Source: a virus (taxonomy: Duplodnaviria > Heunggongvirae > Uroviricota > Caudoviricetes). Taken from it: DNA of 16,662 bases. The stretch is taken from the IMG/VR virus record IMGVR_UViG_2875683775_000003. One strand, 5' to 3'. Both the position numbers and the translations under genes were made by a program. Below the pieces are notes generated by a model that was not told where the DNA came from, did not search any database, and saw only the letters and a program-made list of their open reading frames with translations. Shown in pieces: positions 1,954 through 16,662 of the stretch; the stretch's first letter is position 1; every line of letters begins with the position of its first letter.

Positions 1954-4175
1954 ACTGCCTCCTTGATTTGCCTGTCATTTAATTCTTTAAACCAGACTCT
2001 GAAATTTCTGATGTGTCCAAACAAATGACGCGTTCCTGCTGCGGTCTGCCCACCAAACCGGTACGATGTTGCTGTAACTCCAAATATTTTACCATTAAGG
2101 TTTGTTGTATAATTACCATTGCATATTGCATTTACTGATAAATCAGATTTAGCTCTCACACCCACAATGAACCTTTCTCCATCTGAGGAAATTTGTGGCT
2201 GAACCATTCCTACGTTGGCGCTTATCTTTCCTGTTGAAACAAACCCCAGCGATAAATAATTATCATCAATACTGTGCCCTCCAACATCAAATATCCTTGG
2301 CGCAACATTGGGCGGTGTACTCCAGTTCCTCCTTACTTCGCACAATACTGTAAAAGGCCGTGTTGACAGGTTATTCGCCGAGGGGATAGTAACCACATCA
2401 CTTGCGCGTGTTGTTGGCATTGTAGTTACAATAAATGACGATGCCGTATTGCCCAGTTCAATTTGCGGCGTCGTCATGGTTAATGTTGAGTCATCATAGA
2501 ATGGCTCATTACTTATTTTATTTGTCATATAAAAAGCACAGTTAACGGTATCAATGTCCGTATTAGCTGTATAAGTGGCCTCATAGTAGGTCCACTCGCC
2601 CTGTTGTTCAGCTTTGGCTGTTATAAGGGATGTATTACCGCTTACTGTTGCGATCCGGGTATCCAGATCAAGATAAGAGTCAGCAGAGAATGTATCTGTT
2701 CCACCAATAATAACTGAAACTCTTAACCTGCATCGTGCTTTAGCGCCTTTAACCCGGCACGAAAAAGTGAAACATTCACCACTTGCCAGCGGGAATCTGT
2801 CTGCTGCAACCACACCATGCACAGTATAGCCACCTGTTGTTCCCACTATACTTTCCGTGGGTGTCACCGTGGCATAATTGAACCCCTGTTTATCAGTGCC
2901 AAATGTTTTATTCAGTGCGGAATGAACAGTCCATGAGTCTGGTTTATTTGAGTTCCTCAGATAATTTGTCCTCTGTCCTTCAATCAATAAGCCATCGCGC
3001 TCAAATCGCGGTTCGTCAACTTCAGCAAGCTTGAGTTGGCCGGACTTATTAATATACGTTGCTGTTGAAGCACGTTTAAACTTAACAATCTTGTCGCCTG
3101 GCATTGTTATTTCATCGTCACCAATAACAATCTTTTTATAAGATGGCGAAAAACCCGTAATCATATCCAGCGAATCGTTAAACGGTATCCACACATCAGG
3201 CAGCGGCGGCACTATATTCGCACAGGGCTCTGCAGTCACTTCCGCTGCGGATTCTGCGCGGTCTGCCGCCTTTTCAGCTCGTGTCGCTGCCGACAGAGCC
3301 TCATCCTTTTTCTGCCCGGCCTTTGTTGCGTCTGCTGCGGCCTCCCGCGCTTTTGTGGTGGCGACTCCGGCATTTTCAGCGGCTGACTCTGCATTACGGC
3401 GGGAAGCCTCTTCACTGTCTGCGGAGGCTTCTTCTGACGCACGGGCATTTGTCTCTGAACGTTCTGCCGCTGTTGCTGCGTTTTGTGCGGCTGTTTTTGA
3501 AGAAGCTGCCGCTTTCGCGCTGTTACCTGCATTCGTCTCTGATGTTTTCGCCGCGTTCCTGGACGATGCCGCTGCTGTTTCTGATTTCTTTGCTGCCGCT
3601 GCGCTCTGAGAGGCGGCTTCAGCGTTGCGTGCTGCTTCTTCCACCATTGCCTCAAAACGACGCAATGCCTCCGGCATGACATCATCTTCCGTCATGGCAC
3701 CGAGAAAATCATTCAGCGTACCAGGTCTGGAACCTTCATAGACGGTAATGGTTCCGGCATGTGAAGGCGGAAAACCTTCAACCAGCAGGGTGACGCTGTA
3801 CTGGCCATACTCGACATCCATGCTGTAACGCCCGGCTTCATCCGGATTTTCAGAGGCTACCGTGTTCACCAGTACCGTGGTGCTGTTACGCTTTGCCTTC
3901 AGTTGAATAGTGCAGTTCTGTATTGGTTTTCCCGCACCATCTTTCAGCACACCTGAGATTTTTACTGCTGCCATATTCGGAGCTGACGGCCCCGGTACGA
4001 TATCTTCGGTTTTCGCCTCAGGCGCAACTGGCGCGGTTACCGTCTGATCTTTTGCTGCGGCGTCAGCTTTTGCGTTTTTTGCTACCGCAGGGATAAAACC
4101 TACCTGCTCACGGGATACAATATCCAGGGCGGTATAAATAGTCGGGATCAACCCGGTCAGGGTATTTCCAGCCAT
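1950..4175 (-). CDS. Side tail fibre protein: lambdoid Stf-like N-terminus with a divergent C-terminal receptor-binding region
   Basis: 741 aa from ATG at 4175 (RBS AAGGAA 9 nt upstream); the track ORF start at 4268 is upstream read-through. The N-terminal ~330 aa is Stf-like (MAGNTLTGLIPTIYTALD... followed by an Ala/Ser/Glu-rich coiled-coil repeat). The C-terminal ~400 aa (from ...PLPDVWIPFNDSLD... to ...HIRNFRVWFKELNDRQIKEAV) is unlike the K-12 StfR tip I recall. Confidence 0.85.
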   Translation of the reverse strand: MAGNTLTGLIPTIYTALDIVSREQVGFIPAVAKNAKADAAAKDQTVTAPVAPEAKTEDIVPGPSAPNMAAVKISGVLKDGAGKPIQNCTIQLKAKRNSTTVLVNTVASENPDEAGRYSMDVEYGQYSVTLLVEGFPPSHAGTITVYEGSRPGTLNDFLGAMTEDDVMPEALRRFEAMVEEAARNAEAASQSAAAAKKSETAAASSRNAAKTSETNAGNSAKAAASSKTAAQNAATAAERSETNARASEEASADSEEASRRNAESAAENAGVATTKAREAAADATKAGQKKDEALSAATRAEKAADRAESAAEVTAEPCANIVPPLPDVWIPFNDSLDMITGFSPSYKKIVIGDDEITMPGDKIVKFKRASTATYINKSGQLKLAEVDEPRFERDGLLIEGQRTNYLRNSNKPDSWTVHSALNKTFGTDKQGFNYATVTPTESIVGTTGGYTVHGVVAADRFPLASGECFTFSCRVKGAKARCRLRVSVIIGGTDTFSADSYLDLDTRIATVSGNTSLITAKAEQQGEWTYYEATYTANTDIDTVNCAFYMTNKISNEPFYDDSTLTMTTPQIELGNTASSFIVTTMPTTRASDVVTIPSANNLSTRPFTVLCEVRRNWSTPPNVAPRIFDVGGHSIDDNYLSLGFVSTGKISANVGMVQPQISSDGERFIVGVRAKSDLSVNAICNGNYTTNLNGKIFGVTATSYRFGGQTAAGTRHLFGHIRNFRVWFKELNDRQIKEAV

Positions 4176-4273
4176 AATTAAATATTCCTTAAAAATTTGC
4201 GTAATTGTGAATAGATGGAGTAATGAGCTATCCAGCCCTGACACCAGCTCCCATCCGGAAGCTGACAAATGTG

Positions 4274-5038
4274 TTAATCAACAATTGTGATACCGTCTTT
4301 CAATGCGTTTTGCTTACCTGCAACATCCAGTGCATCAAAAGCAGAGCGTTTCATCGTTTTCTGACCAATATCATGCTGTGTCGGACGGGAGCCGCCGCCA
4401 TTGTTGCCACTGGCTTTCAGGATGTAGTCTTTCTGAGGGTAATTTTCGACGAGGAACTCCAGCGCCTCATCAAACTGCGCCAGTTCGCCAGGCTTCGCGC
4501 GGGAATAAATTTTGTTGCCGGAAGCGTCATAAGCAACGATCTTCCCTTCTTCCACTTTGAATGCCTGCCCGAAGCGGGCTTGTAATAAATCTGCCGGGAT
4601 CGCAATTTTATCGGCAATATATTTTGAACCCGCAAAACTACCGCCAATCATAGAATCGTAAAGCTGCGTCTCCAGCATCTGAGAGCGTTGCTTTTCTTCA
4701 TCTAATTGCTGCTGAAAATTTTTCGTAATTTCTGCCTTAACCTGGTCAACCTGTCCCGCATCGATCAGCTTTTTCTGGTCGATTTTTGACAGCATTTCCA
4801 GTGCCTCGATCGCCTTCTTCGGGTCTTCGATAGCGGCAAACTTAGCCAGTTTTTCCTCTGCAGCTTCTTTAGCCAGGCGATGATTTTTTGCCTCGCCATT
4901 AAGCTCTGTAATTTTTTTTATCGCCAGCGGTGCATCGAAGCCGATTTCTTTACCATCGTCGTGCACATAAACTGGCAGGCCAGCAGTATCAATTTCTGCG
5001 TATTGTTTTCCGTTAATCTCGACCGTTTTCAGTTTCAT
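4274..5038 (-). CDS. Phage protein of unknown function, coiled-coil rich with a Gly-rich C-terminal segment
   Basis: 254 aa from ATG at 5038 (MKLKTVEINGKQYAEID...). The track ORF start at 5110 is a GTG that overlaps a terminator hairpin and is unlikely to be used. Lys/Glu/Ala-rich heptad-like middle region. Occupies the position where K-12 Rac carries the ydaY pseudogene (recollection). Confidence 0.6.
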   Translation of the reverse strand: MKLKTVEINGKQYAEIDTAGLPVYVHDDGKEIGFDAPLAIKKITELNGEAKNHRLAKEAAEEKLAKFAAIEDPKKAIEALEMLSKIDQKKLIDAGQVDQVKAEITKNFQQQLDEEKQRSQMLETQLYDSMIGGSFAGSKYIADKIAIPADLLQARFGQAFKVEEGKIVAYDASGNKIYSRAKPGELAQFDEALEFLVENYPQKDYILKASGNNGGGSRPTQHDIGQKTMKRSAFDALDVAGKQNALKDGITIVD

Positions 5039-5095
5039 ATTAGTACCTGGTTTAAGTCTTCCGACAGTTACGCTGCTCACCATCCGGATCGCAGC

Positions 5096-5122
5096 AATAA
5101 AAAAGGCCACCCGAAGGTAGCC
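5096..5122 (-). terminator. Candidate intrinsic terminator downstream of the ParB-like gene
   Basis: On the minus-strand RNA: GGCUACC-UUCG-GGUGGCC (7-bp stem with one G-U pair, UUCG tetraloop) followed immediately by UUUUUUAUU. Confidence 0.55.
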
Positions 5123-5142
5123 TGTTGTAATAAATGATTTAT

Positions 5143-5574
5143 TTAAATCCCTGCTTTTCTGAATACCTGTGCATCACGCTCACGGAGTTGCTTCAGCGTC
5201 AGCCATTCGCCTTTATCGGTGTAAAATTCATCTGGCGACATACCGCCATCCCGAATCAGCTTTGCCCGGGTTTCCCCCACAATCTGTTTTTGTCTGGTGT
5301 AAGGCTGACGCAAAAACCATTCCCTGTAGGTTGTATCTCCGGCCAGAACAATGACCGGAACAGAATCCATTTTGAGCATTTCAGCCGCCATAACACGACC
5401 GTGACCCGCAATAATTTCGCCCTTTTCGTCAATCAGCACCGGATTAGTCCAGCCGAATTGCTTAATACTTTCTACCAGTTGTGCCACCTGCTCAGTACTG
5501 TGCGTCCTGGCGTTGTGCGCATACGGTGACAATTCTTGTAATGGGCGATAGACTATCTTTAATTTCTCGCTCAT
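5143..5574 (-). CDS. ParB-like nuclease domain protein
   Basis: 143-aa ORF with an AAGG RBS. The N-terminal 80 aa (VYRPLQELSPYAHNARTHSTEQVAQLVESIKQFGWTNPVLIDEKGEIIAGHGRVMAA) has the hallmarks of the ParB/Srx N-terminal nuclease-like fold. Position corresponds to ynaK of K-12 Rac (recollection, unverified). Confidence 0.7.
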   Translation of the reverse strand: MSEKLKIVYRPLQELSPYAHNARTHSTEQVAQLVESIKQFGWTNPVLIDEKGEIIAGHGRVMAAEMLKMDSVPVIVLAGDTTYREWFLRQPYTRQKQIVGETRAKLIRDGGMSPDEFYTDKGEWLTLKQLRERDAQVFRKAGI

Positions 5575-5590
5575 ACAGCCTTGCTTTATG

Positions 5591-5625
5591 AATAAAACGC
5601 ACCCCAGCAGCCAGTGCTACTGGGG
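5591..5625 (-). terminator. Candidate terminator downstream of trkG
   Basis: 6-bp GC stem (CCCCAG/CUGGGG, 12-nt loop) followed on the minus-strand RNA by UGCGUUUUAUU. The stem is weak, so this is tentative. Confidence 0.35.
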
Positions 5626-5711
5626 GCGGAGGTGTTGCTGGTAAAGTTAGGTATTGGATCAATGAGTGAGTCAATATAATATTAAACTCACAATTATAAA
5701 TCAGCCATATA

Positions 5712-7170
5712 TTAGGAGCGCCAAAAAAAACCTGAAAACAATATAATAACAGGATAAATTTCAAGGCGACCAAGAATCATAGCTATGCACATTAAATATT
5801 TTGCAATGTCATTAAGCACTCCGAATGACGATGCAGTAGCCCCAAAACCTAATCCCATATTATTAATACATGCAGCCACTGTTGCAAATGATGTAAGAAA
5901 ATCATATCCCATACCATTTAACACCAGTATAAAAAACACCGTGAAGAGAGTATAAAGAAAAAAGAAACTCCATACAGACCTCATTACACGATCTGTAACT
6001 ATCTTCCCTCCTACATTTACACTCAACAACGCTCTGGGATGAGAAAGCTGATTTATCTCGTGTTTGCTTTGTTTGAAAAGTATAAGAAATCGAAGTGACT
6101 TAATTCCACCACAAGTTGAACCTATACATCCCCCAAAGAAACTTGACGACAGCAAAAACACTATCGTGTGCGTGGGCCAGCTTGCATAATCCTGCGTAGC
6201 TAAACCATTATCAGTGAGCATGGAGCTGGCAAGAAAAAACGAATGAATAAAACTTCCATGCAAGTCATACATACCTATATGCCAGACCTGGAAAGAGGTA
6301 ACAATGATCACCCCTAAGGCTATTAACAGAAAGAAACGAAGTTCAATATCTCTGATTAAAGGTTTTATCGTTTTCCTGCTAATAACAATATACCAAAGAG
6401 TGAAGTTGAAAGCCGATAGCAGGGAAAAAGAACCAGCCACCAGCTCAACCAAATAGTTATTAAAATATCCGATACTCTCGCTATGAGTTGAGAAACCACC
6501 AAGCGAAACTGTGGAAATCCCGTGACAAATAGCATCAAACAAAGGCATTCCTGCAAGTCTATAACAGACAATACAAGCAATACCTAATAAAGAATAAGTT
6601 ATCCACAGTGTCCGTGACGTATCGGCCAGGCGGGGAGTGAGTTTGTCATCCTTAAATGGCCCCGGCATTTCTGACTGATAAAGCTTTGCACCACCAATAC
6701 CCAATAATGGCAATACAGCAACCGCCAGAACAATAACTCCTAAACCACCTATAAAATTTAACTGTGACCGATAGTACAAATATGCCCGAGGTAATGAACT
6801 AACATCATCAATTACAGTTGCTCCTGTTGTTGTTATTCCAGAAACCCCTTCAAACAGAGCATCAATGAACGTTAAATTAAGTTCTGAGTCAATCCATAAA
6901 GGGAATGCACTAATAACAGAAAACAAAATCCAAAACATTACAATTATAATAAACCCATCACGGGTACGTAATTGAATGCCAGATTTCTTAGTTGTATACC
7001 ACGCTCCGCCACCAATGCAAAAAAAATATAACGAAAGTTATAAAGAAAACGAATAGGCTTTTTTCTTTATAAAACAATGCTACAACCATTGGTGGCAACA
7101 TTGAAAGACTATAGAGCCAAACCAGGAACCCACACATATGAGTAACAACTCTTACATGAGATGTATTCAT
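5712..7170 (-). pseudogene. trkG: TrkG/TrkH-family potassium uptake protein gene, disrupted by a +1 frameshift
   Basis: An N-terminal 50-codon fragment (MNTSHVRVVTHMCGF...FVIFF, within track ORF 6988..7188) and a C-terminal 408-aa ORF (5712..6938) lie in different frames. The frame of the large ORF is open upstream to 7037 and reads ...FFCIGGGAWYTTKKSGIQLRTRDGFIIIV. The two frames meet at an A8 run at 7019-7026; removing one A gives a single 485-aa product, the length I recall for K-12 TrkG. Low GC, consistent with a moron. Confidence 0.85.
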
Positions 7171-7307
7171 ATCTAAATATTCTTTCAATTATAACCACCT
7201 TGCTGCAATATTATGATTATACTGTATAAAATTTAACTCCTCTTAGATCTTACTTCACTGTTCCTTATGAAACAATCATCAAAATGAATCATATTGTAGT
7301 TAAGATT

Positions 7308-7772
7308 TTACTTTAAACACTGTTCGGTTATGTATTGCTGAGCACCTTCAAGTTGGGCCTGCATCATTACCAGTCGTTCCCGGAGGGTGAAATAATCCCG
7401 TTCAGCGGTGTCTGCCAGTCGGGGGGAGGCTGCATTATCCACGCCGGAGGCGGTGGTGGCTTCACGCACTGACTGACAGACTGCTTTGATGTGCAACCGA
7501 CGACGACCAGCGGCAACATCATCACGCAGAGCATCATTTTCAGCTTTCGCATCAGCTAACTCCTTCGTGTATTTTGCATCGAGCGCAGCAACATCACGCT
7601 GACGCATCTGCATGTCAGTAATTGCCGCGTTCGCCAGCTTCAGTTCTCTGGCATTTTTGTCGCGCTGCTCTTTGTAGGCGGTGGCGTTATCACGGTAATG
7701 ATTAACAGCCCATGACAGGCAGACGATGATGCAGATAACCAGAGCATAAATAATCGCGGCGACTCTGCTCAC
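7308..7772 (-). CDS. rzpR: Rz-type i-spanin (inner-membrane spanin subunit)
   Basis: Track ORF 7308..7787. The product closely resembles lambda Rz (N-terminal membrane anchor [24 protein letters not shown], coiled-coil body). The likely start is a GTG overlapping the endolysin stop, which gives 154 aa; the start is uncertain. The symbol is by analogy with K-12 Rac. Confidence 0.7.
7367..7552 (-). CDS. rzoR: Rz1-type o-spanin lipoprotein, embedded out of frame within Rz
   Basis: 61-aa ORF with lipobox LVVVGC and a proline-rich segment ([16 protein letters not shown]), fully nested in the +1 frame of the Rz gene. This is the classic Rz/Rz1 arrangement. Confidence 0.75.
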
Positions 7773-8302
7773 TGATCTATCCCCCAACAGGCTAATGCGC
7801 TTTCCTGGTCACGACGAATAACCTGTCCATAGCAGTTATTTGAACGTATGCGGCAATCGCGCCCACCATCTTTTATCCACCAGCGAATCGCCTCGCATGC
7901 ACCCTTACGATCACCGGCATTCAGCCGCTTATAAAACGTCGACGGGAAACACTTACCGGGGCCAATGTTATAGGGACAAAATGACGCTATACCCGCTTTC
8001 TGTGGTTCGGTCAGTGGTACTTTAATATTGCGCTCCACCCATGCCAGCGCCTTATCACGTTCAATAGCGTTAACCTGGTCGCATTTTTCCTTCGACAGCC
8101 TCATTCCCGGTATGACGGGCTTACCATCCACCATTGTGGCACCACGACAGATGGTCCATATACCGGAACCATCGCGGTATGCCGTTGTGTGGTTACCTTC
8201 TTTTTCATCCAGAAACTGGTCGAGAATATCAGGCGCAGGCGCACCGACGGCAATCAGTGCCAGAACGGCAGCCGACAGGCCGTATCTGATTTTTGCGTTC
8301 AT
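7769..8302 (-). CDS. SAR endolysin, T4-lysozyme-like (GH24), P21 R-type
   Basis: 177 aa. N-terminal weakly hydrophobic signal-anchor-release segment ([15 protein letters not shown]) followed by a lysozyme catalytic region ([20 protein letters not shown]). Overall resemblance to phage 21 R and DLP12/Qin endolysins. No obvious SD sequence. Confidence 0.8.
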
Positions 8303-8407
8303 GGATATTTATCAGGATTTATCGGTTTCTGAACCCTGGATATGTTTATCTGTCCCGGCCTGTTGAATCAGGCAAGGAATAGTTAAATACAATAGAGAGG
8401 ATTGTTT

Positions 8408-8680
8408 ATGGACAATAGCACCATTTCTCTACAGGAGTTGCTCGACTGCATTTCCAAGCTTCGGGATGATGTAAATGCCCTTACTGTCGCATTTTCATAT
8501 CTGGCATTCTCAATTCCCAAGGAACAAATGCAACCAACACTGGCATCGCTCCAGCTTGAATCACTCAACCCCAAATGGTCCCAGCAACAACAAAATTCTT
8601 TCAAGTGGCTGGCGGTATTACTGGAAGAAAAATATGCTGGTGAAATTACCATTTCGGCGGAGTCTTCAGTGAACCAGTAA
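8408..8680 (+). CDS. Hypothetical protein encoded antisense within the lysis cassette
   Basis: 90 aa from ATG at 8408 with RBS GAGAGG about 7 nt upstream; the track ORF begins at a TTG at 8402. Protein-like composition and no internal stops, while the minus strand of the same interval has only an implausible Cys/Ser-rich frame. Overlaps the 3' end of the 8646..8990 gene by 35 nt. No family recognised. Confidence 0.4.
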   Translation: MDNSTISLQELLDCISKLRDDVNALTVAFSYLAFSIPKEQMQPTLASLQLESLNPKWSQQQQNSFKWLAVLLEEKYAGEITISAESSVNQ

Positions 8681-8990
8681 TTCTTCCCGGCAGTTTTCCT
8701 TTGTAGGTTATCCACACACCCTGCGCCTCTAAAATTATGGGGCGCTTTTCCGGTGACTGCTCATCCCCTTCACATAACCCTGCAGCAACATCCAGGAAGA
8801 CCTGTCTGATGCTCCTTCTGGCTGCTGCCTCATAAAACTCCAGCGCGGCACCTTCAACACGGTCCAGCGAGATGTCCAGGTCTAAAATTTCACCGTCAAA
8901 GCGTTTTTTGTCCCGTAACGCTAAAGTTACCGTAACTTTATTCTCAAAATTGCGGATCCCTTTCACAATCAGTTCATAGTTTTGAGTCAT
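8646..8990 (-). CDS. Hypothetical lysis-cassette protein, positional equivalent of ydfR (DUF1327) of Qin
   Basis: 114-aa ORF with a strong RBS (GGGGAGAG), starting 4 nt after the pinholin stop. In Qin, as I recall, a DUF1327 gene (ydfR) sits between holin and endolysin. Homology is not verified, and the C-terminal ~25 aa may be an altered tail. Confidence 0.55.
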   Translation of the reverse strand: MTQNYELIVKGIRNFENKVTVTLALRDKKRFDGEILDLDISLDRVEGAALEFYEAAARRSIRQVFLDVAAGLCEGDEQSPEKRPIILEAQGVWITYKGKLPGRITGSLKTPPKW

Positions 8991-8994
8991 TGAA

Positions 8995-9183
8995 TTACTC
9001 TCCCCGTGCAGCCTTACGCTTATCTTCTTTAATCTTGAAATAAAGATTTGTCAGATACGTCAACAGGCCAAACACCAGACTACCCAGCACACCTATTGCT
9101 GCCCACTGTGAGGGCGTGACTCTATCGAGCAACTGTAAAAACCAGTAGCCAGCACTGCCTGCGGAGGTGCCATAGGCGACACC
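8995..9183 (-). pseudogene. 5'-truncated S21-type pinholin gene
   Basis: The minus-strand frame encodes [62 protein letters not shown]-stop, which resembles the phage 21 pinholin from about residue 8 onward. Upstream in frame there is no ATG/GTG/TTG before a stop; the sequence runs into the ydaG RBS and start on the other strand. Confidence 0.65.
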
Positions 9184-9205
9184 CGGCGTTAAGGGGAGAG
9201 ATAAG

Positions 9206-9340
9206 ATGGTGCATTACGAAGTAGTTCAGTATTTGATGGATTGTTGCGGTATCACTTACAGCCCGGCTGTGCAGGCTTTACGTAGCAACGACTGGGATCT
9301 CTGGCAAGCAGAAGCCTCTATCCGCAACAACAAGATGTGA
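9206..9340 (+). CDS. ydaG: Small Rac early-region protein (44 aa)
   Basis: ATG at 9206 with RBS AAGGGGAGAG; 44 aa ([18 protein letters not shown]...). Below the ORF-track length cutoff. Symbol assigned from length and position as I recall K-12 Rac. Confidence 0.6.
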
Positions 9341-9350
9341 GGTGCGAAAA

Positions 9351-9506
9351 ATGCAAAAAATCGACCTCGGCAACAACGAATCCCTGGTGTGCGGCGTGTT
9401 CCCCAACCAGGATGGAACGTTCACTGCCATGACGTATACCAAAAGCAAAACATTTAAAACCGAAACTGGTGCGCGCCGATGGTTGGAGAAGCACACAGTA
9501 AGCTAA
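9351..9506 (+). CDS. ydaF: Small Rac early-region protein (51 aa)
   Basis: ATG at 9351 with RBS GAGGTG; 51 aa (MQKIDLGNNESLVCGVFPNQDG...). The 3' end overlaps the sieB 3' end (convergent). Symbol assigned from memory. Confidence 0.6.
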   Translation: MQKIDLGNNESLVCGVFPNQDGTFTAMTYTKSKTFKTETGARRWLEKHTVS

Positions 9507-9991
9507 CGATTAAAACGTCTACTCCTGCTGTTCCAGAATAACTTCATAAAATGGGAGTATTTTTCGGTGACGAGATAATAAGAACAGTTTGCGCTATCAC
9601 TCTGATGTTGAATGATGCCCTTCCGTTCTAATTTTTTCATAACCGGGTTACGGCAAGGAGAAGTGATAATAAGATTTCCTGTTTTAAGGAAATCTTTAAA
9701 TACAGCGATTTCTTTCTCAGATAAACGAAGCAATACTCGTTGCTCTGGTAGTAATGAATAATGCTTTTGAATATGCGCTCGCAATCTTGAGAAGGAAATG
9801 GCGACCACGAAAGAAAAGGCAAAAACGATAATCTGAAAGAGCCAAGGTATTTCAGTATAAGCATTGAATGCGACAGTAAACTCTTTCGGTATCAGCCAGA
9901 GAGTGAGACCAAAAATGATAATCGTATACATAAGTCTTTCGAGTGGCTCGTTAGCAAAAAGTTTCAACAATGGAGTAAATACATCCAACAT
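9503..9991 (-). CDS. sieB: Superinfection exclusion protein B
   Basis: 162 aa from ATG at 9991 (MLDVFTPLLKLFANEPLERLMYTIIIFGLTLWLIPKEF...). Membrane protein matching Rac SieB in length and sequence as I recall. The track ORF extends to 10114 as upstream read-through. Confidence 0.85.
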   Translation of the reverse strand: MLDVFTPLLKLFANEPLERLMYTIIIFGLTLWLIPKEFTVAFNAYTEIPWLFQIIVFAFSFVVAISFSRLRAHIQKHYSLLPEQRVLLRLSEKEIAVFKDFLKTGNLIITSPCRNPVMKKLERKGIIQHQSDSANCSYYLVTEKYSHFMKLFWNSRSRRFNR

Positions 9992-10432
9992 ATCAATAAC
10001 TCTCAACTGTAAGGGTATTGAAATGTTAACACAAGCTCTCGCTGTAGGGGTATAGCCGAGACCACCGAAGCCCGGAGGTGGTGAAATAAAACCGGGCACA
10101 ACACGAAGGCGCATTTCCGATATCCATAAAGAGTCGGTCTTGTCTGTTAAATTTAAATGGTGGGAGTGCGCCTCCGGTTGTAAATAACGACATTGCTGTG
10201 TGTAGTCCTGGCGGCATCAGTTTTTTTCTTGAAGTTCGGCTGATGTCCGCCCTTTTTAAAGTGAATTTTGTGATGCGGTGAATGCGGCTAAGCGCACGTG
10301 GCACAGTTAAAAGTCATGTTAGTCCTTATTGGTTTGGGTGGGAAAGCCGACTGTAATTGTTAACTGGTTGCAGTCACCTGGAGGCACCAGGCACCGCATC
10401 AACAAAGTTCATTTGTAAAAATGGAGATAATT

Positions 10433-10654
10433 ATGATTGCACATCACTTCGGAACTGATGAAATACCACGTCAGTGTGTGACTCCTGGCGATTATGTTCT
10501 TCATGAAGGCCGGACATATATTGCCTCGGCAAACAATATTAAAAAGCGAAAACTATATATTCGTAACCTGACCACAAAAACATGCATTACTGACCGCATG
10601 ATTAAAGTCTTCCTCGGTCGTGATGGTTTACCTGTAAAGGCGGAGTCATGGTGA
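10433..10654 (+). CDS. kilR: KilR, a cell-division (FtsZ) inhibitor of Rac
   Basis: 73 aa from ATG at 10433 ([35 protein letters not shown]...), RBS GGAG 6 nt upstream. Confidence 0.85.
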
Positions 10655-10824
10655 TGACTAAGAAAATAAAATGTGCTTACCACCTTTGCAAAAAAGACGT
10701 TGAAGAAAGCAAAGCTATTGAAAGAATGCTTCACTTCATGCACGGGATTTTATCAAAAGACGAACCGAGAAAATATTGCAGTGAAGCTTGTGCCGAAAAA
10801 GACCAGATGGCACATGAACTTTAA
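10654..10824 (+). CDS. ydaE: Small Cys/His-rich protein YdaE (putative metal-binding)
   Basis: 56 aa ([56 protein letters not shown]). The ATG overlaps the kilR stop (TGATGA). Below the ORF-track cutoff. Confidence 0.7.
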   Translation: MTKKIKCAYHLCKKDVEESKAIERMLHFMHGILSKDEPRKYCSEACAEKDQMAHEL

Positions 10825-10898
10825 TTAATTGACTATTCGAAACTGAATTTATGCCAGAAATGGCAGGTATTCGCTCAACCTTAATTAAGGAGAAAAAC

Positions 10899-11174
10899 AT
10901 GATTACCAATTATGAAGCCACTGTTGTAACTACCGATGACATTGTTCACGAGGTGAATCTGGAAGGAAAGCGCATTGGCTACGTAATTAAAACAGAAAAT
11001 AAAGAAACCCCATTCACTGTGGTTGATATCGATGGTCCATCAGGCAACGTAAAAACACTTGATGAAGGTGTCAAAAAAATGTGCCTGGTGCATATCGGAA
11101 AGAATCTGCCCGCAGAAAAAAAAGCCGAATTTCTGGCAACTCTAATTGCAATGAAATTAAAAGGTGAAATCTGA
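10899..11174 (+). CDS. racC: RacC protein
   Basis: 91 aa from ATG at 10899 (MITNYEATVVTTDDIVHEVN...), RBS AAGGAG 6 nt upstream. Confidence 0.8.
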   Translation: MITNYEATVVTTDDIVHEVNLEGKRIGYVIKTENKETPFTVVDIDGPSGNVKTLDEGVKKMCLVHIGKNLPAEKKAEFLATLIAMKLKGEI

Positions 11175-11179
11175 AAGAA

Positions 11180-11204
11180 ATAGCCTGCGTATGGCGCAGG
11201 CTAT
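11180..11204 (+). other. GC-rich stem-loop in the racC-recE intergenic region
   Basis: 10-bp perfect stem (ATAGCCTGCG / CGCAGGCTAT) with a 5-nt loop, 6 nt after the racC stop. No U-tract follows, so it is not a canonical intrinsic terminator. Confidence 0.45.
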
Positions 11205-11275
11205 GAACAGTGTGTATCCGGCAAGATCATTCACTGAACAAAACGAATTTTAATCTGAGTTGAGGTTAAAAAACA

Positions 11276-13876
11276 ATGAGCACAAAACCACTCTTCCTGT
11301 TACGGAAAGCGAAAAAATCATCCGGTGAACCTGACGTCGTCCTGTGGGCAAGCAACGATTTTGAATCGACCTGTGCCACTCTGGACTACCTGATCGTTAA
11401 GTCAGGTAAAAAACTGAGCAGCTATTTTAAAGCTGTTGCCACGAATTTTCCTGTCGTTAATGACCTGCCCGCTGAAGGTGAGATCGATTTTACCTGGAGT
11501 GAACGCTATCAACTCAGCAAAGACTCCATGACATGGGAACTAAAACCGGGAGCAGCACCAGACAACGCTCACTATCAAGGCAATACCAACGTCAACGGCG
11601 AAGACATGACTGAGATTGAGGAGAATATGCTACTCCCAATTTCTGGCCAGGAACTGCCCATTCGTTGGCTTGCTCAACACGGCAGCGAAAAACCGGTAAC
11701 GCACGTTTCACGCGACGGACTCCAGGCATTACACATTGCTCGGGCTGAAGAACTACCGGCTGTTACTGCCCTGGCTGTTTCCCACAAAACCAGCCTGCTC
11801 GACCCGCTGGAAATTCGCGAACTCCACAAACTGGTTCGTGACACTGACAAAGTTTTCCCTAATCCTGGTAATTCAAACCTGGGACTGATAACTGCTTTTT
11901 TCGAAGCATACCTGAACGCTGACTACACCGATCGAGGACTGCTGACAAAAGAGTGGATGAAGGGTAATCGTGTTTCACACATCACTCGCACGGCTTCCGG
12001 TGCTAATGCTGGCGGCGGAAACCTCACCGATCGCGGCGAAGGTTTCGTACACGATCTGACGTCACTGGCGCGCGACGTAGCCACTGGCGTACTGGCCCGT
12101 TCAATGGATCTGGACATCTATAACCTTCATCCGGCACACGCTAAACGCATTGAGGAAATTATCGCTGAAAATAAACCGCCCTTTTCTGTTTTCCGCGACA
12201 AATTCATCACCATGCCTGGCGGGCTGGATTATTCCCGCGCCATCGTGGTTGCGTCCGTAAAAGAAGCACCAATTGGGATCGAGGTCATCCCCGCGCACGT
12301 CACTGAATATCTGAACAAAGTACTGACTGAAACCGATCATGCCAACCCTGATCCGGAAATCGTGGATATTGCCTGCGGTCGCTCCTCTGCCCCGATGCCG
12401 CAGCGAGTAACAGAAGAAGGAAAACAGGATGATGAAGAAAAACCGCAACCATCTGGAACAACGGCAGTTGAACAGGGAGAGGCTGAAACAATGGAACCGG
12501 ACGCAACTGAACATCATCAGGACACGCAGCCGCTGGATGCTCAGTCACAGGTAAATTCTGTTGATGCGAAATATCAGGAACTGCGGGCAGAACTCCATGA
12601 AGCCCGGAAAAACATTCCATCAAAAAATCCTGTCGATGCCGATAAATTGCTTGCTGCATCACGTGGTGAATTTGTTGACGGAATTAGCGACCCGAACGAT
12701 CCGAAATGGGTAAAGGGGATCCAGACTCGCGATTGTGTGTACCAGAACCAGCCAGAAACGGAAAAAACCAGCCCAGATATGAATCAACCTGAGCCAGTAG
12801 TGCAACAGGAACCGGAAATAGCCTGCAATGCCTGCGGCCAGACTGGCGGGGATAACTGCCCTGACTGTGGTGCGGTGATGGGCGACGCAACATACCAGGA
12901 AACATTCGATGAAGAGAGTCAGGTTGAAGCTAAGGAAAATGATCCGGAGGAAATGGAAGGCGCTGAACATCCGCACAATGAGAATGCTGGCAGCGATCCG
13001 CATCGCGATTGCAGTGATGAAACTGGCGAAGTCGCAGATCCCGTAATCGTAGAAGACATAGAGCCAGGTATTTATTACGGAATTTCGAATGAGAATTACC
13101 ACGCGGGTCCCGGTATCAGTAAGTCTCAGCTCGATGACATTGCTGATACTCCGGCACTATATTTGTGGCGTAAAAATGCCCCCGTGGACACCACAAAGAC
13201 AAAAACGCTCGATTTAGGAACTGCTTTCCACTGCCGGGTACTTGAACCGGAAGAATTCAGTAACCGCTTTATCGTAGCACCTGAATTTAACCGCCGTACA
13301 AACGCCGGAAAAGAAGAAGAGAAAGCGTTTCTGATGGAATGCGCAAGCACAGGAAAAACGGTTATCACTGCGGAAGAAGGCCGGAAAATTGAACTCATGT
13401 ATCAAAGCGTTATGGCTTTGCCGCTGGGGCAATGGCTTGTTGAAAGCGCCGGACACGCTGAATCATCAATTTACTGGGAAGATCCTGAAACAGGAATTTT
13501 GTGTCGGTGCCGTCCGGACAAAATTATCCCTGAATTTCACTGGATCATGGACGTGAAAACTACGGCGGATATTCAACGATTCAAAACCGCTTATTACGAC
13601 TACCGCTATCACGTTCAGGATGCATTCTACAGTGACGGTTATGAAGCACAGTTTGGAGTGCAGCCAACTTTCGTTTTTCTGGTTGCCAGCACAACTATTG
13701 AATGCGGACGTTATCCGGTTGAAATTTTCATGATGGGCGAAGAAGCAAAACTGGCAGGTCAACAGGAATATCACCGCAATCTGCGAACCCTGTCTGACTG
13801 CCTGAATACCGATGAATGGCCAGCTATTAAGACATTATCACTACCCCGCTGGGCTAAGGAATATGCAAATGACTAA
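11276..13876 (+). CDS. recE: Exodeoxyribonuclease VIII (RecE), full length
   Basis: 866-aa ORF with RBS TGAGG. Central acidic low-complexity region and C-terminal nuclease domain. Length and sequence match RecE of Rac. Confidence 0.95.
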
Positions 13877-14678
13877 GCAACCACCAATCGCAAAAGCCGA
13901 TCTGCAAAAAACTCAGGGAAACCGTGCACCAGCAGCAGTTAAAAATAGCGACGTGATTAGTTTTATTAACCAGCCATCAATGAAAGAGCAACTGGCAGCA
14001 GCTCTTCCACGCCATATGACGGCTGAACGTATGATCCGTATCGCCACCACAGAAATTCGTAAAGTTCCGGCGTTAGGAAACTGTGACACTATGAGTTTTG
14101 TCAGTGCGATCGTACAGTGTTCACAGCTCGGACTTGAGCCAGGTAGCGCCCTCGGTCATGCATATTTACTGCCTTTTGGTAATAAAAACGAAAAGAGCGG
14201 TAAAAAGAACGTTCAGCTAATCATTGGCTATCGCGGCATGATTGATCTGGCTCGCCGTTCTGGTCAAATCGCCAGCCTGTCAGCCCGTGTTGTCCGTGAA
14301 GGTGACGAGTTTAGCTTCGAATTTGGCCTTGATGAAAAGTTAATACACCGCCCGGGAGAAAACGAAGATGCCCCGGTTACCCACGTCTATGCTGTCGCAA
14401 GACTGAAAGACGGAGGTACTCAGTTTGAAGTTATGACGCGCAAACAGATTGAGCTGGTGCGCAGCCTGAGTAAAGCTGGTAATAACGGGCCGTGGGTAAC
14501 TCACTGGGAAGAAATGGCAAAGAAAACGGCTATTCGTCGCCTGTTCAAATATCTGCCCGTATCAATTGAGATCCAGCGTGCAGTATCAATGGATGAAAAG
14601 GAACCACTGACAATCGATCCTGCAGATTCCTCTGTATTAACCGGGGAATACAGTGTAATCGATAATTCAGAGGAATAA
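13869..14678 (+). CDS. recT: RecT single-strand annealing protein
   Basis: 269 aa from ATG at 13869 ([18 protein letters not shown]...), overlapping the recE stop by 8 nt. The track ORF start at 13812 lies upstream inside recE. Confidence 0.95.
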
Positions 14679-14685
14679 TTCAGCC

Positions 14686-14724
14686 TGGCGGTGTAATGCA
14701 CCGCCAACTTGAAATATTTTTTAT
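14686..14724 (+). terminator. Candidate terminator/attenuator hairpin between recT and ralR
   Basis: 8-bp stem TGGCGGTG / CACCGCCA with a 5-nt loop, followed 9 nt later by TATTTTTT. The spacer is longer than ideal, so this is tentative. Confidence 0.4.
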
Positions 14725-14734
14725 GAGAAAAATT

Positions 14735-14929
14735 ATGAGATATGACAATGTTAAACCATGTCCATTTTGTGGTTGTCCATCAGTAACGGTGAAAGCCATT
14801 TCAGGATATTACCGAGCGAAGTGTAACGGATGCGAATCCCGAACCGGTTATGGTGGAAGTGAAAAAGAAGCACTCGAAAGATGGAATAAACGAACCACTG
14901 GAAATAATAATGGAGGTGTTCATGTATAA
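14735..14929 (+). CDS. ralR: RalR, a small DNase toxin of a type I toxin-antitoxin pair (restriction alleviation)
   Basis: 64 aa from ATG at 14735 (MRYDNVKPCPFCGCPSVTVKAISGYYRAKCNGCESRTGYGGSEKEALERWNKRTTGNNNGGVHV). An in-frame ATG at 14723 would add 4 residues. Confidence 0.85.
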   Translation: MRYDNVKPCPFCGCPSVTVKAISGYYRAKCNGCESRTGYGGSEKEALERWNKRTTGNNNGGVHV

Positions 14930-15131
14930 AATTACCGCCACTATTGAAAAGGAAGGTGGCACTCCTACTAACTGGACAAGATATTCAAAATCTAAACTAA
15001 CGAAATCAGAATGCGAAAAAATGCTCTCAGGTAAAAAAGAAGCAGGCGTTTCCAGAGAGCAGAAAGTAAAACTGATAAATTTTAATTGCGAGAAACTTCA
15101 GCCCTCGAGAATTGCATTGTATTCAAATTAA
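14922..15131 (+). CDS. ydaC: Small Rac protein YdaC
   Basis: 69 aa from ATG at 14922 (MYKITATIEKEGGTPTNW...), RBS GGAGG 5 nt upstream. Overlaps the ralR 3' end by 8 nt. Confidence 0.75.
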   Translation: MYKITATIEKEGGTPTNWTRYSKSKLTKSECEKMLSGKKEAGVSREQKVKLINFNCEKLQPSRIALYSN

Positions 15132-15209
15132 AACTTCATAGCTGATTATTAATAATCAACATCGGGCGTCAATTTCAGTCTAACATTGGCGCCTGCCAGA
15201 GGTGATGCG

Positions 15210-15425
15210 ATGGCACAAGTAATCTTTAATGAAGAGTGGATGGTTGAATACGGCCTGATGCTTCGCACTGGTCTGGGGGCCAGACAAATTGAAGCATACC
15301 GCCAGAACTGTTGGGTGGAGGGCTTCCACTTCAAACGAGTATCTCCTTTAGGTAAGCCAGACAGCAAACGAGGGATTATCTGGTACAACTATCCAAAGAT
15401 AAATCAGTTTATCAAAGACTCATGA
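15210..15425 (+). CDS. xisR: Excisionase-like protein
   Basis: 71 aa from ATG at 15210 ([35 protein letters not shown]...), RBS AGAGGTG. Its stop lies 1 nt before the integrase ATG. Confidence 0.8.
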
Positions 15426-15426
15426 T

Positions 15427-16662
15427 ATGTCTAAATTACCAACAGGTGTCGAGATTAGAGGTAGATACATTCGCATCTGGTTCATGTTTCGAGGAAAACG
15501 ATGTCGGGAAACATTAAAAGGCTGGGAGATTACAAACAGTAATATTAAAAAGGCCGGAAATTTAAGATCGCTGATAGTTCATGAAATAAACTCCGGTGAA
15601 TTTGAGTATTTAAGACGTTTTCCCCAGTCCAGCACTGGGGCAAAAATGGTGACAACGAGAGTCATAAAAACGTTCGGAGAGCTTTGTGATATCTGGACAA
15701 AAATTAAAGAGACAGAGTTAACAACAAACACAATGAAGAAAACGAAATCACAATTAAAAACACTCAGAATAATAATTTGTGAAAGTACCCCGATATCACA
15801 TATTCGTTATAGCGATATCTTAAACTACCGGAATGAACTGCTGCATGGAGAAACGCTTTACCTGGATAATCCAAGATCCAACAAAAAAGGAAGAACCGTG
15901 CGCACAGTTGATAACTATATCGCCCTGCTCTGTTCGCTGTTGCGTTTTGCGTATCAGTCGGGATTTATATCAACTAAACCATTTGAAGGAGTAAAAAAAT
16001 TACAGCGAAACAGAATAAAGCCTGATCCGTTATCTAAAACAGAATTCAATGCATTAATGGAAAGTGAAAAAGGACAGAGCCAGAACTTGTGGAAATTTGC
16101 CGTTTACTCAGGACTTCGTCACGGGGAACTGGCAGCTCTGGCGTGGGAGGATGTGGATCTCGAAAAGGGAATAGTGAATGTCAGAAGAAACCTGACGATA
16201 CTTGATATGTTCGGTCCCCCAAAAACAAATGCCGGGATCCGAACAGTAACACTACTGCAGCCTGCTCTTGAAGCACTGAAGGAGCAATACAAACTGACCG
16301 GGCATCATCGCAAAAGCGAAATCACCTTTTATCATCGGGAGTACGGCAGAACCGAAAAGCAAAAACTGCATTTTGTTTTCATGCCCAGGGTGTGTAACGG
16401 AAAACAAAAACCTTATTACTCGGTAAGCAGTTTGGGGGCAAGGTGGAATGCAGCAGTAAAACGTGCTGGTATTCGCCGCCGTAATCCGTACCATACGCGG
16501 CATACTTTTGCCTGCTGGCTGTTGACGGCAGGAGCGAACCCGGCATTTATAGCCAGCCAAATGGGGCATGAAACTGCGCAGATGGTGTATGAAATTTACG
16601 GTATGTGGATTGATGACATGAACGACGAACAGATAGCCATGTTGAATGCGCGGTTATCGTAG
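15427..16662 (+). CDS. intR: Tyrosine integrase of the Rac prophage
   Basis: 411-aa ORF. C-terminal tyrosine-recombinase region with conserved R...H..R...Y residues (...HTRHTFACWLL... and ...YEIYGMW...). The stop codon is the last codon of the window. Confidence 0.95.
   Translation: MSKLPTGVEIRGRYIRIWFMFRGKRCRETLKGWEITNSNIKKAGNLRSLIVHEINSGEFEYLRRFPQSSTGAKMVTTRVIKTFGELCDIWTKIKETELTTNTMKKTKSQLKTLRIIICESTPISHIRYSDILNYRNELLHGETLYLDNPRSNKKGRTVRTVDNYIALLCSLLRFAYQSGFISTKPFEGVKKLQRNRIKPDPLSKTEFNALMESEKGQSQNLWKFAVYSGLRHGELAALAWEDVDLEKGIVNVRRNLTILDMFGPPKTNAGIRTVTLLQPALEALKEQYKLTGHHRKSEITFYHREYGRTEKQKLHFVFMPRVCNGKQKPYYSVSSLGARWNAAVKRAGIRRRNPYHTRHTFACWLLTAGANPAFIASQMGHETAQMVYEIYGMWIDDMNDEQIAMLNARLS

Follow-up and report, generated by a model that had tools for sequence, protein, structure and literature searches.

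A probable single-deletion scar joins a truncated pinholin gene to the ydaG leader within the Escherichia coli B Rac prophage

The 16,662-base stretch of DNA analysed here (hereafter the window) is the Rac prophage carried by Escherichia coli B-type strains, from ydfK to intR. Within it, the 3′ part of a pinholin gene, essD, runs directly into the leader of ydaG on the opposite strand, and this junction is very probably what one large deletion left behind in a lambdoid prophage of the Rac type beside ttcA. An initial annotation of the sequence had proposed that a deletion cut into the pinholin gene and fused it to the RBS and ATG of ydaG, and base-level alignments with undeleted relatives confirmed this.

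Results

The Rac element of B-type strains

Bar one extra A, which relative to REL606 lies inside trkG, the whole window was matched base for base in REL606, ATCC 11303 and strain B, and likewise in some 20 wild isolates. Around the junction (window 8000-10200), identity was 100% in BL21(DE3), REL606 and other B derivatives. According to the annotation of the identical BL21(DE3) region, the element adjoins ttcA, the Rac attachment site, and it combines this site and intR/xisR with the early-left block recET-kilR-sieB-ydaFG, which places it in Rac. The next gene of the early-left block after ydaG is ydaF (DUF1391; 9351-9506, + strand), identified by annotation and Pfam. The sieB gene (9503-9991, − strand; Pfam PF14163 and annotation) has the same orientation as the lysis cassette and is now the nearest gene upstream on the holin strand. 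Its frame is open further upstream, to an ATG at 10114 (9503-10114, −, 203 codons); the annotated SieB has 162 residues and starts at 9991.

The trkG frame occupies 5712-7170 (−), and the extra base, near its 5′ end, shifts the frame and leaves an ORF of 408 codons. The window has a run of eight A at 7019-7026, compared to seven in BL21(DE3), REL606 and all 29 full-length matches; the eighth A may be a true mutation peculiar to the strain, or else the source assembly may contain a sequencing error in this homopolymer. Two segments of the window, 2663-5204 with tail-fibre ORFs and 11546-13044 with an internal 1.5-kb part of recE, are present in REL606 and missing from the BL21(DE3) lineage; therefore, the Rac element of BL21 is more decayed than the copy in the window.

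Base-level structure of the junction

The junction was searched for in 5,426 complete E. coli genomes with window 8995-9400 as the query. On its left side, 8995/9000-9185 (−) was 100% identical to the 3′ part of the intact essD of EcPNK006 (186 bases aligned). On its right side, from 9180 on, the window aligned with the sequence upstream of ydaG in K-12, MSB1_6C, EcPNK006 and ATCC 8739. It holds the last 26 bases of the ydaG leader, the only native upstream bases left to this gene, followed by ydaG itself. Homology to K-12 resumed exactly at 9180, and homology to essD ended at 9183-9185. As both parental sequences carry the hexamer CACCCG, of which a single copy is kept in the window (9180-9185, three-way alignments), the crossover was assigned to it. 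The essD-side parent reads ...CCATAGGCGA CACCCG TTGTTAACTTATCCATGGATTTCAT, the window ...CCATAGGCGA CACCCG GCGTTAAGGGGAGAGATAAGATGG, and the ydaG-side parent ...GTTAGTTCCGC CACCCG GCGTTAAGGGGAGAGATAAGATGG. In ATCC 8739 the essD-side copy is CACCTG, so the perfect microhomology is 4-6 bp long. An alignment of this region had been suggested in the initial annotation, and it yielded both the breakpoint and the microhomology.

The hexamer belongs to an extended imperfect direct repeat, CG[A/C]CACCCG[GC/TT]GTTAA (9177-9192), in which 13 of the 16 positions are common to the essD and ydaG sides. Because of this shared 16-base patch, the BLAST matches from the two sides overlap: those from the ydaG side start at 9177-9180 (query positions 183-186), and those from the essD side end at 9177-9192 (query positions up to 198). 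Neither filler bases nor mobile-element ends were found at the junction in the base-level alignments. As is typical of deletions at microhomologies, each flank runs into a separate, collinear parental sequence in undeleted relatives, a short direct repeat is found at both parental breakpoints, and one copy of it is retained with no insertion.

Nine codons of essD were lost by descent (MKSMDKLTT). The Leu-Thr codons were restored by chance from the GTTAA of the ydaG side, and the visible change in the protein is the loss of six codons and a Thr-to-Pro substitution. Thus, the earlier proposal that about seven codons are missing and replaced by the RBS and ATG of ydaG was right about the replacement, but not about the count.

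The identical junction (100%) was detected in 62 of the 5,426 genomes, and only those 62 span both sides. They comprise laboratory B, BL21 and NEB derivatives together with isolates from humans, poultry, chicken meat and seawater, and 29 of them carry the full-length element at an identity of at least 99.9%. As 62 independently assembled complete genomes agree, the junction is neither a chance match nor an assembly artefact, and its presence in wild isolates shows that the deletion is natural and older than the laboratory use of strain B. Its carriers either inherited the scar or acquired it with one transferred element, and so uniform a junction does not speak independently for selection of the short form. 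The possibility that the short holin is a conserved functional variant was ruled out, as all 62 carriers hold one near-identical element.

The interval lost from the B lineage

To find undeleted relatives, an ancestral query was reconstructed from window 8800-9185 and the continuation of the intact essD, and genomes matching it at 99.5-99.8% over its full length were found. Two of them, EcPNK006 and ATCC 8739, carry Rac at ttcA, as the window element does in its hosts, with Rz, endolysin and YdfR under the same protein accessions as in BL21(DE3). Unlike the window, both encode an intact EssD of 71 residues, beginning MKSMDKLTTGVAYG. The left arm of ATCC 8739 showed 0 mismatches to window 5344-9183, a single-base trkG difference apart. 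To the right of essD, the order in both strains is a small ORF, tRNA-Gly, tRNA-Thr, a Q-like antiterminator, the DUF1364 and DUF1367 nin genes and hok; then strain-specific cargo, DUF977, DUF1627, ydaV, a gene in the position of ydaU, and ydaT; and finally a cro-like HTH gene and the repressor, after which ydaG-ydaF-sieB-kilR...intR follow. All of the tRNA, Q-like, nin, hok, cargo, replication and cro-like genes are absent from the window. The repressor, an HTH protein of 139 residues, differs from the RacR of K-12. In the undeleted relatives the Q-like antiterminator matched phrog_753 (E=3.6e-79).

Both parental copies of the repeat are present in these prophages. In EcPNK006 (locus L005) they lie at 20381-20386 and 30663-30668, 10,282 bp apart, and the spacing is 12,554 bp in MSB1_6C (locus L003) and ~10,610 bp in ATCC 8739 (locus L006). 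The deletion would thus have measured 10.3-12.6 kb, a range that comes from undeleted relatives and not from the exact ancestor of B.

By this comparison, the B element lost essD codons 1-9 with the SD and both start codons, two tRNA genes, the Q-like antiterminator, the nin genes, the cargo, ydaV/U/T, the cro-like gene, the repressor and a PL-like promoter. No match to RacR, YdaS/T/U/V, Q, the cro-like protein or the alternative repressor was found anywhere in the window by tblastn, and BL21(DE3) has been reported to be negative for racR by PCR (PMC6765115). These data agree with three further claims of the initial annotation. The removal of the interval that holds racR, ydaS, ydaT, ydaU and ydaV in K-12 is seen in the tblastn result and in the restart of K-12 homology at 9180; the late regulator expected within the interval is present there, as the phrog_753 gene, in undeleted Rac prophages; and the element is devoid of a repressor, as indicated by both tblastn and the PCR data. 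The immunity type of the B ancestor would have been either that of RacR or that of the 139-residue HTH repressor.

The PL-like promoter, a near-consensus TTGACA-17-TATAGT (11/12), is directed towards ydaG in K-12 and stands 170 bases upstream of that gene, past the breakpoint. As depletion of RacR raises the expression of ydaG, ydaF and kilR 40- to 70-fold (PMC6765115), this sequence is probably the repressor-controlled early-left promoter, which is gone from B.

The content of the interval that B lost varies among its relatives. The cargo includes the anti-phage genes iteA/iteS in MSB1_6C (L003 7940-11333), an ATP-dependent nuclease and a cytosine methyltransferase in ATCC 8739 (L006 23780-26673), and an ATPase and a STAS-like protein in EcPNK006 (L005 24102-26059). 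The repressor is RacR in K-12 and MSB1_6C and the 139-residue HTH protein in ATCC 8739 and EcPNK006, and an IS3 element is found within the interval of MSB1_6C. The essD-ydfR cassette of MB06021 (locus L004) was also considered as a parent and was ruled out, as it belongs to another locus and is only 95% identical.

In K-12, Rac (MG1655, 1,411,899-1,434,958) is this same element, likewise at ttcA, with 99.72% identity to the window from intR to ydaG (9180-16662, 7.5 kb) and 99.4% from ynaK through trkG into the 3′ part of Rz (5344-7745). K-12 keeps racR, ydaS, ydaT, ydaU, ydaV and ydaW leftwards of ydaG, whereas B lost the block from immunity to Q. Conversely, Q, the holin, ydfR, the endolysin and the 5′ part of Rz were lost from K-12, whereas B keeps the lysis cassette. 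As the left-arm homology of K-12 stops at about window position 7745, the K-12 deletion ends inside Rz (7308-7772). The C-terminal 34 residues of the K-12 protein annotated as "YdaW" are encoded by Rz-region DNA, with 91% identity to the translation of window 7744-7643. Judging from these alignments, the K-12 and B deletions are independent, overlapping deletions of one ancestral prophage. Beside the junction, the ydaG-ydaF patch (9180-9400) was 94.6% identical to K-12 and EcPNK006, 98.6% to MSB1_6C and 97.3% to ATCC 8739, a small mosaic patch in a right arm that as a whole is 99.7% identical to K-12.

Coding capacity of the truncated holin frame

The holin remnant, essD′ (8995-9185, −), is what is left of a class II (phage-21-type) holin gene of 71 codons, namely codons 10-71 and the stop. 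It retains both transmembrane domains but neither the RBS nor either of the Met starts. The open minus-strand frame extends from 9213 to 8995 (stop 8997-8995), with an upstream stop codon at 9216-9214, and tblastn placed EssD residues 7-71 at 9192-8998. The Pfam family PF04971 (phage 21 holin S) was matched with 113.1 bits (cut-off 26) over profile positions 3-63 of 64. Residues G10-E71 are those of the intact EssD of EcPNK006 and ATCC 8739, and they include the predicted pair of transmembrane domains of the family, a SAR-like TMD1 and a pore-forming TMD2.

The S21 pinholin of phage 21 comprises the S68 holin and the S71 antiholin, and the EssD of DLP12 is also a PF04971 protein. The remnant resembles both in its 113-bit match, its two transmembrane domains, its charged C-terminus and its location upstream of a SAR-type endolysin and Rz/Rz1. 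Unlike them, it is what remains of a gene and no longer a functioning pinholin: the dual-start motif (Met1 for the antiholin, Met4 for the holin) and the SD that precedes it were deleted with codons 1-9, and the late promoter is also absent. Pinholin genes of this family come first in a late operon governed by a Q antiterminator and a late promoter, and no Q-like gene is present in the window.

No ATG, GTG or TTG is in frame before codon 27 of essD′. The first canonical in-frame start is the TTG at 9132 (codon 27 of the intact protein), and the sole earlier near-cognate codon is the ATC at 9207. From the latter, a foreign 5′ extension of the frame (9186-9207, −) would encode (I)LSLPLT plus the first two bases of the Pro codon; its reverse complement is the leader of ydaG together with the start codon. 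RefSeq/PGAP nevertheless annotates a CDS at 8995-9207, a 70-residue "phage lysis protein EssD" with an ATC start at 9207-9205. The SD duplex energy was +0.4 kcal/mol for ATC 9207 (20 bases upstream) and −2.2 kcal/mol for TTG 9132, compared to −9.1 kcal/mol for the intact essD and about −8.3 to −8.5 kcal/mol for ydaG, ydfR, Rz and Rz1. Hence no SD-backed start codon had been overlooked when the initial annotation described the holin frame as having no possible start.

On the opposite strand, ydaG (9206-9340, +; 44 codons) is intact and follows directly, as first described, with its ATG at 9206, the RBS GGGGAGAG at 9193-9200 and an SD energy of −8.3 kcal/mol. Its product, 44 residues long, has 89% identity to the YdaG of K-12 and matched phrog_14709 (E=2e-36). 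As ATC 9207 overlaps the ydaG ATG on the other strand, no intergenic room is left for an essD′ promoter. From its start region, essD′ is almost certainly an untranslated pseudogene, and the ATC-start CDS of RefSeq an annotation artefact.

On the other hand, the remnant and the whole downstream cassette carry no further inactivating mutations, and are identical to the undeleted copy of ATCC 8739, the one-base trkG difference apart. This undamaged state is compatible with a recent deletion or with continued selection.

The lysis cassette and its transcription

Four bases downstream of the essD′ stop codon lies ydfR (DUF1327; 8646-8990, −), which is intact and encodes WP_000193293.1, the same protein as in ATCC 8739 and EcPNK006. 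The endolysin gene (7769-8302, −; PF00959) is also intact; its product of 177 residues has, in translation, the lysozyme triad E35-X8-D44-X5-T50, a motif as described in PMC9239132. Residues 7-24 of the endolysin are weakly hydrophobic and rich in Ala, Gly and Ser, with K4 and R6 before them, an N-terminal segment typical of a SAR domain, so that SAR behaviour is predicted for this enzyme. The Rz i-spanin (7308-7772, −) and the Rz1 o-spanin lipoprotein embedded in it (7367-7552, −; lipobox VVGC) are intact, with PF03245/PF06085 matches for Rz/Rz1.

The initial annotation had concluded that the element should be unable to lyse the cell, as it has an intact SAR endolysin and spanins but no holin. 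The intact state of these genes was corroborated, but the conclusion drawn from the loss of the holin was too strong. SAR endolysins are exported by Sec and are slowly and spontaneously released in cells without holin, with lysis later and less synchronous (PMC9239132); therefore, the lack of a holin does not by itself bar lysis. Q, the late promoter region and all nearby promoters are gone, and it is mainly for this reason that the cassette would be essentially silent. A promoter scan of 7000-10700 gave fewer promoter-like sites than shuffled sequence, with none usefully placed for essD′ or ydaG, and the early-left operon from ydaG on has presumably been left with no native RacR-controlled promoter.

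The sole plausible source of transcription on the holin strand would be read-through from sieB across ~500 untranslated bases, which run antisense to ydaF and ydaG and then through essD′. Between sieB and the holin remnant (9503-9208, −), no terminator-like site emerged from a scan with a simple consensus, which is blind to Rho-dependent termination. Rho-dependent termination across the ~500 untranslated bases downstream of sieB is likely. It might still be asked whether the SAR endolysin and spanins are co-transcribed with sieB at a low level in B-type strains, as a module for suicide or leakage that works without a holin and is set off when the membrane depolarises. We consider this a long shot; if true, such a module might play a part in abortive infection or in the leaky envelope of B strains.

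An ORF of 92 codons (8402-8680, +) runs antisense to the 3′ end of ydfR and the ydfR-endolysin spacer. It had no match in Pfam, and it is annotated in RefSeq as a hypothetical protein in B, ATCC 8739, EcPNK006 and MB06021. Were it real and equipped with a promoter, its reading direction would be towards ydaG, which has none.

Discussion

Origin of the junction

The ancestral prophage would have carried, rightwards, trkG, Rz/Rz1, the endolysin gene, ydfR, essD, the tRNA-Gly/Thr genes, a Q-like antiterminator, nin genes and cargo, followed by ydaV/U/T, a cro-like gene, the repressor, the PL-like promoter, ydaG and ydaF. In this element, two CACC(C/T)G direct repeats 10-12.5 kb apart, each within the 16-base patch that matches at 13 positions, would have stood at essD codons 9-11 and 26 bases upstream of the ydaG start codon. 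Illegitimate recombination between them, by replication slippage or short-homology joining, would have removed everything in between. Slippage, RecA-independent joining and short-homology recombination stimulated by RecET are all possible routes, and the scar fits each of them.

In K-12, racR is essential, as its loss derepresses ydaS/ydaT, and across genomes ydaS was never found without racR (PMC5700373, PMC5700377). The deletion was presumably tolerated since the repressor went together with ydaS/ydaT: because ydaS, ydaT, the replication genes and the late activator were taken along with the repressor, the lethality of racR loss would have been avoided. A deletion of this content would disarm the prophage in a single step.

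Other readings of the region concern either the product of the shortened frame or the way in which the junction arose. With respect to the product, the RefSeq model would imply a functional, 70-residue EssD with a short or altered N-terminus, started at ATC 9207. The PGAP call of 8995-9207, the open frame and the two intact transmembrane domains are in its favour, and so are the findings that AUC can initiate translation and that phage 21 pinholins with shorter N-terminal truncations or without Lys3 stay pore-competent, and even trigger faster (bioRxiv 10.1101/063800, bioRxiv 10.1101/2021.04.20.440580). The latter finding also means that the defect of essD′ lies in its expression and not in the body of the protein. 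However, AUC initiation reaches 1-2% of that of AUG even in an optimised context (bioRxiv 10.1101/063800), and the ATC has no SD (+0.4 against −9.1 kcal/mol for the intact gene) and no promoter region, in addition to overlapping the ydaG ATG on the other strand. Moreover, the N-terminal residues are merely the reverse complement of the ydaG leader, and the form is confined to one near-identical element in 62 genomes instead of being independently conserved, all of which makes a functional ATC-start EssD extremely unlikely. Scarcely credible is a minimal pinholin of 45 residues, containing only TMD2, from the internal TTG at 9132. This codon is the first canonical start in frame, and TMD2 alone was reported to be necessary and sufficient for transient pores, although the product would equal the S21 24-68 truncation, in which the YWFLQW patch is lost and pore formation falls (bioRxiv 10.1101/2021.04.20.440580); in addition, the SD of the TTG is weak (−2.2 kcal/mol) and no promoter is evident.

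With respect to the origin, a specific mechanism, such as an IS-mediated deletion or site-specific or ordinary homologous recombination, could have acted in place of chance microhomology, as Rac encodes RecET, Pin and Int, and the undeleted interval of MSB1_6C contains an IS3 element. This is highly unlikely, however, as the junction has no IS end, att-like or Pin site or filler bases, and the 4-6 perfect bases shared (13/16 over the patch) are far too short for RecA-dependent recombination. The opposite polarity, with the B arrangement ancestral and the 10 kb gained elsewhere, or an artefact of assembly, has formal possibility alone in its favour and a negligible probability. The holin is broken mid-gene with nothing to supply its start, and the block that would have been inserted is the canonical lambdoid module for immunity, replication, nin and Q, standing where such a module normally stands; an artefact is contradicted by 62 independent complete assemblies that agree to the base. 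The concordant assemblies, together with the undeleted relatives, refuted both ideas. A single large deletion between short repeats is thus the reading retained here.

Significance for B-type strains

The scar is an ordinary, textbook case of prophage decay in a well-known genome, and will not surprise specialists in phage or E. coli genomics. A full-text literature search, with the 2009 comparison of the B and K-12 genomes outside its scope, returned nothing specific on the Rac deletion in BL21/REL606. As for annotation, RefSeq gives essD as a CDS with an ATC start in BL21, REL606 and genomes related to them, whereas it ought to be labelled a 5′-truncated pseudogene. The scar also explains at base resolution why BL21 and B strains have no racR, ydaS or ydaT, an absence that underlies the reported difference from K-12 in the toxicity of foreign regulators (PMC6765115). 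The Rac genes that remain in B (recET, kilR, ydaFG and the lysis cassette) are left without their native promoters and regulators. From the overlapping deletions of K-12 and B, plus ATCC 8739, a complete Rac can be reconstructed. Other decayed cassettes of the cryptic prophages of K-12, e.g. rzpR/rzoR in Rac, are also partial lysis cassettes that were left after internal prophage deletions; unlike rzpR/rzoR, the B cassette is broken nine codons into the holin gene and is otherwise fully intact.
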